Of a stretch of 64,000 nt of DNA, positions 30,691 through 35,334 are shown piece by piece; the first letter of the stretch is position 1; each line of letters begins with the position of its first letter. The stretch comes from Candidatus Thorarchaeota archaeon (GTDB taxonomy: Archaea; Asgardarchaeota; Thorarchaeia; Thorarchaeales; Thorarchaeaceae), in contig JAFGAR010000040.1 in the NCBI GenBank assembly GCA_016933575.1, positions 32,001 through 96,000 of the forward strand, in the 5' to 3' direction. The notes beneath the pieces were generated by a model. It saw nothing but the letters and a program-made list of their open reading frames with translations, did not search any database and was not told the origin of the DNA. The position numbers and the translations under genes are program-made.

Positions 30691-30774
30691 TTTGATCAAC
30701 CAAAACAATATCCGCAATTACTGCAAAAATCTTAATATCAATTGATTTGCCAGTCCCCTTCTTGAGGGGTACAT

Positions 30775-31698
30775 TTGTCCAAAAAACTAGCGTGGATTAG
30801 CAACTTCTTTTCAGTGCTATCAAAAAAGGCTCTGTTTAGATGGTTCATTTTTCTGATCTTCATTTCTGGAGTGGTTTTCATCTTTGGAAACTATGATGAA
30901 TTTAACACTCTTAGTCTATTGTTCTCATTTGTTACTAGCATGGGGTGGTTCATAGCAACTGGTCTTCCATTTGTAGTTGGAGCATCACTAGTCTTTTGCT
31001 CCAAGGAAACACAAAATAGCATTTCAGCAAAGATGAATACTGAATATCAAGTTCGATTTTCAATTGTCTTTGTTTCATATTTGATTCTCATGCTGCTTGG
31101 AAAGTAGTTATTGGGCTCTCCATGATACAGCTTCACGCAAATCGGATTTTCCCTCCCCTCTGATGACCTTTTAAAAGCGAAAGCAGGTATTGAGGACAGA
31201 AGAAAAAAAGCAATAGCCGTAACTATTACAATCATCATATTCATGTCATTTTCTTCTTATAGCTACAGTCAGATACAACAAGCAGAATCCCCGTTCGTCG
31301 TGTACGAGAGTCCTTATGGAGGAGAAACTGTCAATATTGGAGAATGGATATATGGTTCGTTCGTAGGTCAAGAACGTCCCGAATTAGATCCGTTATACAC
31401 GAAGTGTTCTGGTCAAGTCCTTAACTGGCTCTTTTCTTCAGGAAATATCACTTTCAATTTTAATTCCAAGCAACTGACAATGGTTGAATTCCTTGAATTA
31501 AACGATACTGAAATCTATGATTCATTCCATACTGGACAAAATATCCATACCACTATGGATGGAACCTTTCAAGATGCTGGAGTGGATGTTACTCAAGAAT
31601 CTGAATACATTTGGGTTCTGAGGTTCGTCGATATTAACGGAAAGACTTCAGGAACAATAGATGTTTGGTTTCAAATTTACTTGCATACATATCATTAA
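30775..31698 (+). pseudogene. Probably interrupted membrane protein gene (two same-frame ORFs)
   Basis: 30775..31107 and 31243..31698 are in the same frame, separated by TAG 31105 and TGA 31123; the gap encodes RRKKAIAVTITIIIFM, a TM helix running into the second ORF. Confidence 0.4.
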
Positions 31699-31763
31699 CA
31701 AGATTTAAGTCAGAATTGCTAATTATCACTATTGACCCAACAGAAAAAGAGGTGAAAAACGCA

Positions 31764-31871
31764 ATGGGTACTGAACCAAGATCCGCTGCCCATCAATATC
31801 GGGTCGCAAACGCAAAAGGTGACTGCCAAATTAAGTCATCAACACGAGGTGAACGTGTTCTTACGGTCTAG
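31764..31871 (+). CDS. Possible 35-aa leader peptide (uORF)
   Basis: GAGGTGA at 31749-31755, then ATG 31764; MGTEPRSAAHQYRVANAKGDCQIKSSTRGERVLTV*. Confidence 0.35.
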   Translation: MGTEPRSAAHQYRVANAKGDCQIKSSTRGERVLTV

Positions 31872-32190
31872 TGACCGTGAGGTACATCCTACTTTTCAGA
31901 GTCTTGTTGCATCATTCTTCAAATTAGCCGAGACTAGAATGAGTGATACGCAAAAGACTGTATTGAGGACAAGTCGTCAGCTATTGAAATTCCGTGATAT
32001 ATCCTTGACATCGCTGGCTGATTTAGTTTCTCGTCGTTCTGAAGTCCCTTACAGCACCGTGAAATGGAATCTACGCTCTCTAAAAGAGATGGGTCTGTTA
32101 ACTGGTGGGGATATGAGTTGCAAGGGAGAACACGCTCGTCTAACGCATGCGGCTCAGATGTTAGCGGATCATCTGGAGAAAGAGTATTAG
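31819..32190 (+). CDS. Winged-helix DNA-binding protein
   Basis: SLTSLADLVSRRSEVPYSTVKWNLRSLKEMGLL...ARLTHAA. Confidence 0.7.
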   Translation: MTAKLSHQHEVNVFLRSSDREVHPTFQSLVASFFKLAETRMSDTQKTVLRTSRQLLKFRDISLTSLADLVSRRSEVPYSTVKWNLRSLKEMGLLTGGDMSCKGEHARLTHAAQMLADHLEKEY

Positions 32191-32196
32191 AACAAA

Positions 32197-32221
32197 GGGG
32201 CTTCTTCAGCCCCCTTTTTTT
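32197..32221. terminator. Hairpin + T-tract between convergent genes
   Basis: GGGGCT-TCTTC-AGCCCC, then CTTTTTTT. Confidence 0.7.
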
Positions 32222-32261
32222 GATTAGGATATTCGAAAGAAGAGTAAGGGTGCTTCCCTGT

Positions 32262-32299
32262 CTCAACCGATACTGCTTTGCTTTACGTACCGATATCAT
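32262..32299 (-). promoter_or_regulatory. Eukaryote-type (form 2) SECIS element
   Basis: Minus strand AUGAU-AUCGGUAC-GU-AAA-GC-AAA-GC-A-GUAUCGGU-UGAG: AUGA/GA core, 8-bp helix, unpaired AAA, apical mini-helix. Confidence 0.8.
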
Positions 32300-33102
32300 T
32301 GAATCTTTTTATCGAACATCTCCAAGCCTTTTTGTGCAAGAGCTTTCGCCTCTTCAGGATTGGTCGCAGCTGCAAGAACGACATCCACAGTCTTGTGTTC
32401 TCCAGAATCATAGGATCCAAGATTCCATTGAAGCGCTGTGGCAATGTCTCTTGGTCCAAGCTCGAGGTTCTTACTTAGGTCGCGGTTTTCTTCATCGATT
32501 CTGAGTTTTGTGGGACTGCCAATTTCCCACGCATCAGCCTTCGGATTTGAAACCATAACCACACATAGCGGGTTGTCGTCGTAGGCAGCCATAATTCCAG
32601 ACACTGGATCATAGGTGCCGACATCATCCTTATAGCTGGTTGGTCCACCAACATCGAAGTCCATGAAATTGTAGAGTTTCAAGTCCTCAATGGTGGAACT
32701 GTTCGATAGGTTTGTCGTTTTGAAACGTACCAGCAATATCGGTGTGTTATAGCTCCACACCTCGAGATCAAATCGTGCCATGGGTGGTTGTCCTTCTACT
32801 GGAGAATGATCCAGAACAACGTGTAGTCTTCCATCCTGCGCATCTTCAGTTACTACGGAGATTGTGGCAATTTCAGTAGAGCTTACTCTGTGAACAATAC
32901 CGTCCACAATGTACGTGAGCGAAAATCCACCTTTGTAATCTGCAGGATTTCGTAGTAGTAGTCGTTCTTTCCCACTAGCATCGATCAGACTGAGGCGCTT
33001 GATGTAGAAACCTAGGCGACCTTTTCCTCAGGATGAACACTCGACAGCGTATGCGATATCCAACCTCGGACTGCGATTGCCCGTTTCAAGGATTTCAGAC
33101 AT
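32296..33102 (-). CDS. Putative selenoprotein (268 aa, Sec25 in CxxU), family not recognised
   Basis: ATG 33102 is in frame with ORF 32296..32907, with a single in-frame TGA at 33030-33028 in VECSS(U)GKG; SECIS at the 3' end. Confidence 0.8.
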
Positions 33103-33146
33103 GACCGATCACTTTACCAATGCTATTGCTGCTGACTCGCTCTTTT

Positions 33147-33170
33147 GATATAAACCTCAGGATATATCCT
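33147..33170 (-). promoter_or_regulatory. TATA-like box and adjacent 12-bp palindrome upstream of the selenoprotein gene
   Basis: TTTATATC (minus strand, 33154-33147); AGGATATATCCT at 33159-33170. Confidence 0.4.
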
Positions 33171-34509: not shown

Positions 34510-35334
34510 TTGCGTGTCTTAGTCACATCTGAGAAGGATATCGCAAGTCAAACCATCAAGCACGTTCTTGTCGAAGAATATGGATTCAAACCTAGTGAAA
34601 GAAGCTTCGAAGGCAATCCAATCTTTAGTTATGATGATTCTACAATCCTAATAACAACCCAACGTGACATGATCTACTGTGACCATCTTGAGGTCTTCTT
34701 TGATGCTGATGTTTTCATCTTTTGTTCTCGGCATAGAGCTGAGTCTGCTAAGCCTGCTCTGCTGGTTCACAGCACGGGTAATCTCGGATCAGAAGCCTCC
34801 TTTGGTGGTAATCCTAATGAGGTATCTGTTTCTGCACCTTCTTTGGTTTCTGCAGCTTTAAAGCGTCTATTCAAAGAGAGAAACGATCGAAACCTCGATG
34901 AATTTGATGTTTCTCTTGAGGTCACGCATCATGGACCTACATCTATGAAAACGCCTCTTGTTTTTGTAGAACTTGGTAGTACCGAGGAATATTGGGTACA
35001 CACTGAAGGTGCTAGAGCGGTTGCTGCTGCTATCATGGATTGTGTCCGTACGCCTCTCTTATCAACTACTGCAATAGGTTTTGGTGGGACTCATTATGCT
35101 AGTAAGTTCAACAAGCTCGTCTTGGAAAAGGATTACAATTTTGGGCACATTGCTCCTAAGTATGCTATAGATGGTTTGACTCATGATGTAGTACGACAAA
35201 TGGCCACAAGAACCACCTCTGAATCTAAAATCGCGATTATCGATTGGAAAGGCATGAATGCTGAGAACAAAGCCAATGTTTTTCCTTTACTTGAGGAGCT
35301 TGGACTTGAAATAATCCGTGATAAAGACGCATAA
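34510..35334 (+). CDS. dtdA: D-aminoacyl-tRNA deacylase (archaeal DTD2)
   Basis: SRH.AES, LVHSTGN, EVTHHGP, FVELGSTEEYW, GFGGTHYA. Confidence 0.93.
   Translation: MRVLVTSEKDIASQTIKHVLVEEYGFKPSERSFEGNPIFSYDDSTILITTQRDMIYCDHLEVFFDADVFIFCSRHRAESAKPALLVHSTGNLGSEASFGGNPNEVSVSAPSLVSAALKRLFKERNDRNLDEFDVSLEVTHHGPTSMKTPLVFVELGSTEEYWVHTEGARAVAAAIMDCVRTPLLSTTAIGFGGTHYASKFNKLVLEKDYNFGHIAPKYAIDGLTHDVVRQMATRTTSESKIAIIDWKGMNAENKANVFPLLEELGLEIIRDKDA

Follow-up and report, generated by a model that had tools for sequence, protein, structure and literature searches.

Evidence for an uncatalogued selenoprotein family with a predicted supersandwich fold in Asgard archaea

We describe a gene on the minus strand of a 64,000-nt stretch of a Candidatus Thorarchaeota genome (assembly GCA_016933575.1, contig JAFGAR010000040.1, positions 32,001 to 96,000; the window, whose own numbering we use throughout) that very probably encodes a genuine selenoprotein of an uncatalogued family, decoded with the help of a selenocysteine insertion sequence (SECIS) at the end of the gene. 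The frame runs from ATG 33102 to 32299 with a single internal stop, TGA 33030-33028, at codon 25; read through this codon as selenocysteine (Sec), the product has 268 residues and contains ...AVE-C22-S-S-U25-G-K-G-R.... The original prediction, made from the letters of the window, had proposed this frame, its lone TGA, its CxxU motif, and its length, and had noted that the open reading frame (ORF) track starts at GTG 32907; all of these particulars were confirmed to the nucleotide. A profile search of the whole genome finds one copy of the gene, with one TGA inside. As judged from the homologous loci, the family is mis-annotated everywhere as a truncated hypothetical protein.

The reading frame across the in-frame TGA

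A protein search returned 124 homologues, all of them hypothetical proteins of Thorarchaeota or Promethearchaeota metagenome-assembled genomes and 175-241 residues long; as called, they all fall short of the TGA, with starts variously placed at codons 30, 34, 39, and 48. At the DNA level, tblastn matches residues 1-268 in 45 or more loci, nearly all of the 49 that were fetched (47 were usable for counting the TGA and 45 were compared for the upstream coding signature). Codon 25 is TGA in 46 of the 47 usable loci of the window's own type (Thor-type) and TGT (Cys) in the other, L007; the N-terminus conserved across loci reads MSEILETGNRxPRLD..EC.S-U-G.GR. Over the 24 upstream codons, the mean entropy at codon positions 1, 2, and 3 is 0.69, 0.35, and 1.42. 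Synonymous changes make up 54% of the differing codons there, and none of the 45 loci compared has a further stop. Amino acid identity is 69% in this segment against 68% in codons 26-60, with third-position wobble on both sides of the TGA, a pattern that indicates purifying selection upstream and downstream alike. The N-terminal segment is also the densest run of invariant residues in a 46-sequence Thor-type alignment (M1, G8, P12-D15, C22, U25, G26, G28, and G31), and a deep profile search recovers tiny called ORFs that stop exactly at residue 24. Invariant residues lie farther along the protein too: D148, D150, D159, D160, D175, W192, E193, D208, D219, Q225, and N227.

Homologous sequence does not begin near 32907, where a start would have spoken against the original prediction; conservation runs through the TGA to a conserved ATG, and the site aligns with TGA or Cys, never with Trp or Arg. 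One protein with Trp at position 25 was considered and rejected, being flagged as a gene call with TGA read as Trp; since it was the sole such case, no homologue has Trp or Arg at codon 25. A pseudogene, a nonsense mutation, or a sequencing error would account for the stop codon in frame and for nothing further. The same TGA recurs in 46 other genomes (about 60 genomes of the census described below show a single TGA), an independent 2017 metagenome contig is identical in sequence across codon 25, and purifying selection acts on both of its sides; we regard this explanation as refuted. One Thor-type copy (L050:3001-3423) keeps the TGA, and its frame ends at residue 196 and gives way to unrelated sequence; a disrupted gene or a join made in assembly is the probable cause.

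The start signals also appear to belong to the longer frame. The TATA-like box that had been placed about 45 nt upstream lies 44 nt before ATG 33102, and TTTATATC or CTTTTAAC stands at the equal distance from the ATG in most of the 46 Thor-type loci. The block next to the start codon, GTGATCGGTC, forms with it the consensus GTGatc.gTC ATG, which is at least 80% conserved over the loci compared; we take this block to be complementary to the 3′ end of 16S rRNA and label it a putative Shine-Dalgarno sequence. Judged by position and conservation, both signals serve ATG 33102 and not GTG 32907, a start at which would cut off the first five β-strands of the predicted sandwich.

If the TGA were a genuine stop, the locus would consist of a 24-codon leader ORF and a downstream gene that re-initiates somewhere between codons 30 and 66, and the 3′ hairpin described below would be a terminator or regulatory element. 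Gene callers annotate the locus in this manner everywhere, codon 30 or 34 is an ATG in some genomes, and TGA is an ordinary stop in this genome, where it closes 471 of 1354 long open frames (~35%). In the window, however, the stretch from the TGA to codon 66 is free of start codons, the position of the restart varies among genomes, and both frame and sequence are conserved straight across the TGA. Moreover, an in-frame Cys replaces the TGA in one lineage and in whole clades, the hairpin of the protein that spans the TGA is integral to a confidently predicted fold, and the 3′ element carries an AUGA..AAA..GA signature in common with vhuU. We consider termination at codon 25 very improbable.

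The SECIS element and the decoding apparatus

A SECIS-shaped hairpin had been proposed about 730 nt downstream of the TGA. The element begins 729 nt after the Sec codon and covaries: over the loci it follows the pattern A-UGA-N-[8-bp helix]-GUAAAGC-NNN-GCA-[helix]-N-GA-G, with compensatory changes in all eight helix pairs. Of the alignment cells in the helix, 95.7% are paired, against 35-51% in slid controls, and the observed level of covariation was reached by none of 500 shuffles. The A/G-UGA and GA of the core are nearly invariant and the AAA is invariant; the GC/GC of the ministem is conserved, without both-sided changes. The element thus has the features of the type II Asgard eSECIS-like class (Huang 2024), namely, the AUGA_GA core, the upper helix, the unpaired A's, and the apical ministem. 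Because its UGA forms the AUGA core of the SECIS, the terminal stop is TGA in 47 of 47 loci, against about 35% TGA among long-frame stops genome-wide; the preceding base is A in 45 loci and G in 2.

A strict descriptor of this element finds only four sites in the 3.47-Mb genome, one of which lies at the end of vhuU (...VVRCYDC-U-LSCGAH...), whose SECIS has an identical layout, including the stop codon as core. The descriptor was used in place of a covariance model of the family SECIS (R1) because the model, applied genome-wide with a coarse first filter, found only itself and is too family-specific. A scan of 32100-32400 against Rfam gave no SECIS family and only weak small-RNA matches driven by the terminator. 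The fourth site found by the descriptor (G000:C93:1615-1648, minus strand, on a 2-kb contig) reads ATGA-A-GGCTCAAC-CGAAACTCGG-GTTGGGCT-G-GA; the 500 nt upstream of it on the contig hold no recognisable selenoprotein, and it may mark another unrecognised selenoprotein gene or be due to chance.

Published work covers eSECIS-like elements in Asgard archaea and, in Thorarchaeial frhA, a G[U/G]AAA apex; it also reports that the AUGA can overlap a UGA stop codon and argues that such a UGA terminates on account of a minimal UGA-to-SECIS distance. The gene in the window shares its decoding system and a 3′ SECIS with an AUGA...GA core with Asgard vhuU, hdrA/vhuD, prxL, and selD (Mariotti 2016; Huang 2024), the GUAAA apex with other Thorarchaeial SECIS genes, and the use of a UGA stop as SECIS core with vhuU of its own genome. 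The RNA element is therefore of an already known type, and it accounts for the recoding of a UGA far upstream as well as for the constant TGA stop.

Directly 3′ of the SECIS lies a second small hairpin, with compensatory changes in five of seven modelled pairs and an inner GGG/CCC that is about 90% conserved; Loki-type elements (see below) have an analogous side hairpin. A lower stem (helix I) below the core might be formed by purine-rich Lys codons and a downstream UCUUCUU tract; the tract is missing in some loci and the sequence is of low complexity. The single Thor-type gene with TGT at the Sec position (L007:2998-3866, which is the L092 gene of genome G345) retains the terminal A-UGA, and the hairpin behind it is weakened, with a helix of about 5-6 bp and UUGAAAG replacing GUAAAGC. 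From its sequence this looks like a recent switch from Sec to Cys with a decaying SECIS.

The Sec machinery that the original prediction called for is complete in the genome. SelB (268 bits), SepSecS (376 bits), tRNA-Sec (61 bits, also called by ARAGORN), and a PSTK-like gene (133 bits, under the equivalog cut-off, adjoining tRNA-Sec) are clustered on contig C57, and SelD (403 bits) is on C64. Transcription would start behind the conserved TATA box and translation at ATG 33102; the UGA at codon 25 would be decoded as selenocysteine by Sec-tRNA(Sec) and archaeal SelB, directed by the kink-turn SECIS 729 nt downstream at the end of the gene. The SECIS would take the gene's own terminal UGA as its AUGA core, and this UGA would still terminate, its position within the SECIS being closer than the minimal UGA-to-SECIS distance that the published model requires.

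Relatives, fold, and likely chemistry

In a census of 400 genomes of the phylum, the Thor-type gene is present in 70 of the 85 genomes of the window's own family-level clade; the full-length matches carry one TGA (about 60 genomes) except for a single match with none, the Cys form. A remote relative of about 292 residues occurs in four other clades: f22 (122 of 135 genomes), f21 (10 of 14), f23 (3 of 4), and f30 (5 of 5). Upstream of the called ORFs in f22, f23, and f30, an in-frame TGA stands at the homologous place. The site reads ...FN[DE][IV]LA[TL]-U-N..GYLMGF in f22 (NNICIT-U in its subgroup g60), VC[TS]I-U in f23, and LCSK-U in f30; in f21, it is IC[IV][EN]C, with Cys. The Cys forms that align at the UGA are L007/L092, with TGT, and the CxxC proteins of the f21 clade and of relatives P0143, P0149, P0169, and P0174. 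In a MAFFT alignment, a single column takes in the TGA or Cys of every Asgard clade sampled, with 26 U and 9 C; hhalign relates the Thor-type and Loki-type profiles with 99.9% probability (E 2e-35), the Sec columns being aligned. By these alignments the family spans several Asgard clades, whose members have either Sec or Cys at the shared position. The interpretation given in the original prediction stands, none of the refuting outcomes that it had named having been borne out; its scope has to be widened, as the family is not confined to the lineage of the window.

Ordinary stop codons, TAA or TAG, close the f22 genes, and a typical lokiSECIS of the form AUGA-UUCAAAUAA-AAAAA...UUAUUUGA-UGA comes after them; RNAalifold recovers this element de novo, compensatory pairs included. 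Two of the three Sec-bearing non-Thor clades sampled, f22 and f30, thus have a SECIS of their own; in f23, a strict descriptor found none in the 200-430 nt of downstream flank, these flanks being short. No SECIS was found in the Cys-form f21 genes. In f30, the SECIS of L088 and L114 overlaps the end of the coding sequence: its AUGA comes from Asn-Asp codons 14 nt before the stop, its helix has 9 bp, and the UAA stop lies inside an apical UUAAAG motif.

The same comparison bears on whether the UGA might be read by a standard tRNA (a near-cognate Trp, Cys, or Arg tRNA, or a suppressor) and not by Sec-tRNA(Sec). Read-through of UGA does occur in archaea. Against such decoding, the SECIS accompanies the TGA forms and is missing from the Cys forms, the genome has the full Sec machinery, and the position alternates with Cys only, which is a hallmark of Sec sites. 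We suggest that decoding by a standard tRNA is highly unlikely.

Some relatives depart from the common pattern. In subgroup g70 of f22, L103 and L104 (genomes G188 and G217) keep the KIVLKIIWHDVLAT-TGA hairpin and the 3′ SECIS, and about 29 nt inserted right after the TGA put GYVMGF in a different frame, which might reflect a disrupted gene, a split one, or a stranger arrangement. In L091, L103, L104, and L105 of the same subgroup, the interval from the GGAGGT Shine-Dalgarno sequence to the Sec hairpin contains no ATG, GTG, or TTG, and a conserved ATA stands 9-10 nt past the Shine-Dalgarno sequence (AAA ATA GTN CTT AAA), hinting at AUA as the initiation codon of these genes. The remote relatives P0147, P0157, and P0163 carry the C-terminal two-thirds of the supersandwich (described next) ahead of Transglut_N and transglutaminase-core domains. 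The segment they share corresponds to profile positions ~105-260, includes the DFDxGG...DD motif, and is also found in very large multidomain proteins.

The original prediction had guessed a β-sandwich of the glucoamylase-N or mutarotase type, unrelated to thioredoxin, and the structural model agrees well with this guess. AlphaFold2, given a 46-sequence alignment, predicts an almost all-β protein with a predicted local distance difference test score (pLDDT) of 90.4 over the full length and a predicted template-modelling score of 0.89. The closest matches are the N-domain of glucodextranase (1ulv_A 19-258; Z 23.9, root-mean-square deviation 2.4 Å over 226 residues) and that of bacterial glucoamylase (1lf6_A; Z 23.5), with deviations of 2.4-2.5 Å over about 226 residues. 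Enzymes of glycoside hydrolase (GH) families GH94, GH116, and GH65 follow at Z 18-22 and galactose-mutarotase-like proteins at Z 14-16, and the top 50 structural matches are all supersandwich domains. Sequence identity to these structural relatives is only 10-16%. No Pfam or NCBIfam model matches the protein (E ≤ 0.1-1); weak Pfam matches to Lipase_bact_N (E 0.014) and Rad26-like_N were rejected as below the cut-off, as were insignificant aIF2-gamma matches (E 0.03), the only ones in a sequence search of the PDB. A model of the Loki-type protein has a pLDDT of 89.3, the same fold, and Z 19-20 to the same structural entries.

The modelled fold is thus that of a stand-alone supersandwich of the GH15/GH94/GH65 N-domain type. 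The likeness to the N-domains of GH15 glucoamylase and glucodextranase (1lf6, 1ulv), to GH94, GH65, and GH116 enzymes, and to mutarotase-like proteins extends over the whole protein (residues 1-268), which differs from the GH15-type domains in having no catalytic barrel, no Pfam match, and an added Sec/Cys knuckle. We know of no GH N-terminal supersandwich domain that carries such a knuckle. The protein ends after one helix, without the (α/α)6 catalytic barrel. A split glucoamylase was considered and rejected, as the genome, which is 85% complete, yielded no GH15 or GH94 catalytic domain; the sole barrel-like lead was a sub-threshold match to DUF608 at C156:79055-79507.

In the model, C22-x-x-U25-G occupies the turn of a hairpin made of strands 13-22 and 29-40. 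The CxxU motif is shared with the thioredoxin-fold selenoproteins of eukaryotes (SelW, SelT, SelH, and SelV, and SelM and Sep15), in which it forms a redox-active selenenylsulfide. Those proteins have an α/β thioredoxin fold with the motif at the N-terminus of a helix, whereas here it lies in a β-hairpin turn of a supersandwich of about 270 residues, and most Loki-type members lack the Cys at -3. The non-Thor clades have instead a C-terminal extension of about 35 residues that ends in an invariant Cys and is absent from the Thor-type proteins, which have the Cys at -3. We suggest that the protein is a cytoplasmic stand-alone β-supersandwich in which residues 13-40 would form the first long hairpin, with the C22-x-x-U25-G knuckle in its turn. 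Sec25 would be the reactive centre, cycling most likely by way of a selenenylsulfide bond to Cys22; where the -3 Cys is mostly missing, as in the other Asgard clades, the partner would be the invariant Cys of the C-terminal tail, so that in the Loki-type model the pair would be Sec16 and Cys308. We put this redox pair forward tentatively, at slightly less than an even chance. The Sec centre may act on a ligand held by a conserved acidic and aromatic surface (DFDxGGPxSYKDD, WE, QWN). That the proteins form an Asgard-specific class of selenoenzymes, in which a supersandwich with a Sec knuckle provides a catalytic selenenylsulfide or metal centre for a ligand, possibly a sugar or glycan, is a more doubtful proposal, which we think possible but unlikely.

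The same selenoprotein could have a different chemistry. Sec25 and Cys22 might be ligands in a rubredoxin-like metal knuckle (for example, for Ni, Fe, Zn, Cu, or Hg), the site being completed by a second subunit or other residues and, in relatives, by the third Cys of a CxxCxxC motif, the C-terminal Cys, or both. The rubredoxin-type knuckles (CPxCG) likewise have C-x-x-[C/U]-G in a β-hairpin turn, and here too an invariant Gly comes next. The classical spacing for cluster or metal binding, C-x-x-C-x-x-C, occurs in some Cys-type relatives (the one with a named cluster is labelled Promethearchaeota), and the C-terminal Cys of the non-Thor clades is invariant. Among archaeal selenoproteins, VhuU and Fdh are known to use Sec as a metal ligand. 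However, there is a single knuckle, and the Thor-type proteins conserve no second ligand pair; their two thiol or selenol residues are too few for a mononuclear Cys4 site, and most Loki-type members have a hydrophobic residue at -3. Provided that the gene is a selenoprotein, we regard a metal knuckle as possible but unlikely.

Several points weigh against a Sec-decoded redox protein of an uncatalogued family. The presence of selenium in the protein and translation through the UGA are inferred, and so is the chemistry. Most Loki-type members have a hydrophobic residue in place of the Cys at -3, so that a strict CxxU redox pair is not universal. The lower stem (helix I) of the Thor-type SECIS could not be established, and the 729 nt between Sec codon and SECIS is a long distance; comparably long ones have been published for hdrA and vhuD. 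Finally, it is possible that a paper beyond the literature searched lists the family.

Neighbourhood, novelty, and significance

The Thor-type loci are syntenic: a gene for a coiled-coil protein is found in 45 of 45, DTD2 in 43, and a small winged helix-turn-helix gene in 41 of 45 (Table 1). The winged-helix gene, which ends at 32190, and the selenoprotein gene have a GC hairpin (32197-32214) in common. The neighbourhood offers no functional clue, and the contexts of the Loki-type genes differ. Between the convergent winged-helix gene and a conserved gene of 163 residues, the window is longer by about 1 kb (30700-31750) than most syntenic loci; the ORFs in this extra DNA (31243-31698 and 30775-31107) have no Pfam match. 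Two metatranscriptome contig sets of the source study contain no match to the stretch, which counts neither for nor against expression.

Table 1. Positions of the gene, its signals, and its neighbours in the window
Feature	Position	Strand	Remark
TATA box TTTATATC	33147..33154	-	44 nt before ATG; read in sequence, putative promoter element
Shine-Dalgarno-like block GTGATCGGTC	33103..33112	-	abuts start codon
Putative selenoprotein coding sequence, 268 aa	32299..33102	-	ATG 33102 to last sense codon
Cys22 codon TGT	33037..33039	-	three residues before Sec; invariant in the 46-sequence Thor-type alignment
In-frame TGA, codon 25	33028..33030	-	probably read as selenocysteine; conserved TGA/Cys column
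GTG, codon 66 (Val)	32907..32909	-	wrong start chosen by ORF callers
Terminal TGA stop	32296..32298	-	also UGA of the SECIS AUGA core
Kink-turn (eukaryote-like) SECIS	32262..32299	-	A-UGA core 32299-32296
SECIS helix arms	5′ 32294-32287; 3′ 32273-32266	-	
SECIS apex GUAAAGC-AAA-GCA	32286-32274	-	
SECIS 3′ core U-GA-G	32265-32262	-	
Second small hairpin	32247..32259	-	stem AGGG/CCCU, loop AAGCA; directly 3′ of SECIS
Pyrimidine tract UCUUCUUU	32236..32243	-	candidate archaeal terminator or lower-stem strand; in most, not all, loci
GC hairpin GGGGGC-UGAAGAA-GCCCC	32197..32214	.	A-run/T-run flanks; between two convergent genes; terminator-like
Small winged-helix gene	31819-32190	+	convergent; weakly like TK0271 transcriptional activators (E 3e-7, below cut-off)
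Coiled-coil protein, ~410 aa	33240-34493	+	divergently transcribed; no family match
DTD2-type D-aminoacyl-tRNA deacylase gene	34510-35334		downstream of coiled-coil gene

The survey of Lokiarchaeota by Mariotti 2016 (PMC4989117), which included a de novo search for SECIS elements, found only HdrA, VhuD, VhuU, PrxL, and SPS. Huang 2024 (PMC11227280), a homology-driven analysis of more than 400 Asgard genomes, lists seven families: SelD, FrhA/VhuU, HdrA, FrhD/VhuD, Prx-like, AhpF-N, and DsbA-like. A 2026 review repeats this list, and other Asgard papers report the same families. The present family is not listed in the published Asgard selenoproteomes of 2016-2026, and in the searched literature no supersandwich or mutarotase-like protein is linked to selenocysteine. 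By sequence (Pfam and NCBIfam) the protein has no homology to the seven families; it is unrelated to them and has another fold, the GH-N-type supersandwich. No catalogued family matches, in keeping with the original prediction of an undescribed one. As far as can be told, the family is uncatalogued; its decoding follows the standard mechanism.

The surveys published so far give Asgard archaea only seven selenoprotein families, most of them found by homology, one survey being also SECIS-based and de novo. To these would be added a new family without an annotated relative, present in most sampled genomes of two large Asgard clades. The comparison of sequence across in-frame TGAs, combined with lineage-specific SECIS models, evidently still uncovers major families, and annotation pipelines could correct hundreds of entries. 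The use of a stop codon as SECIS core makes the gene a useful case for studying how, in the absence of SBP2, a ribosome distinguishes a UGA for Sec from one that means stop. Were the proteins indeed a class of selenoenzymes, they would place selenium chemistry on a scaffold never before linked to selenium. As the family spans Thor-type and Loki-type lineages with repeated switches between Sec and Cys, it would also offer a new marker of selenoproteome evolution near the archaeal ancestor of eukaryotes.

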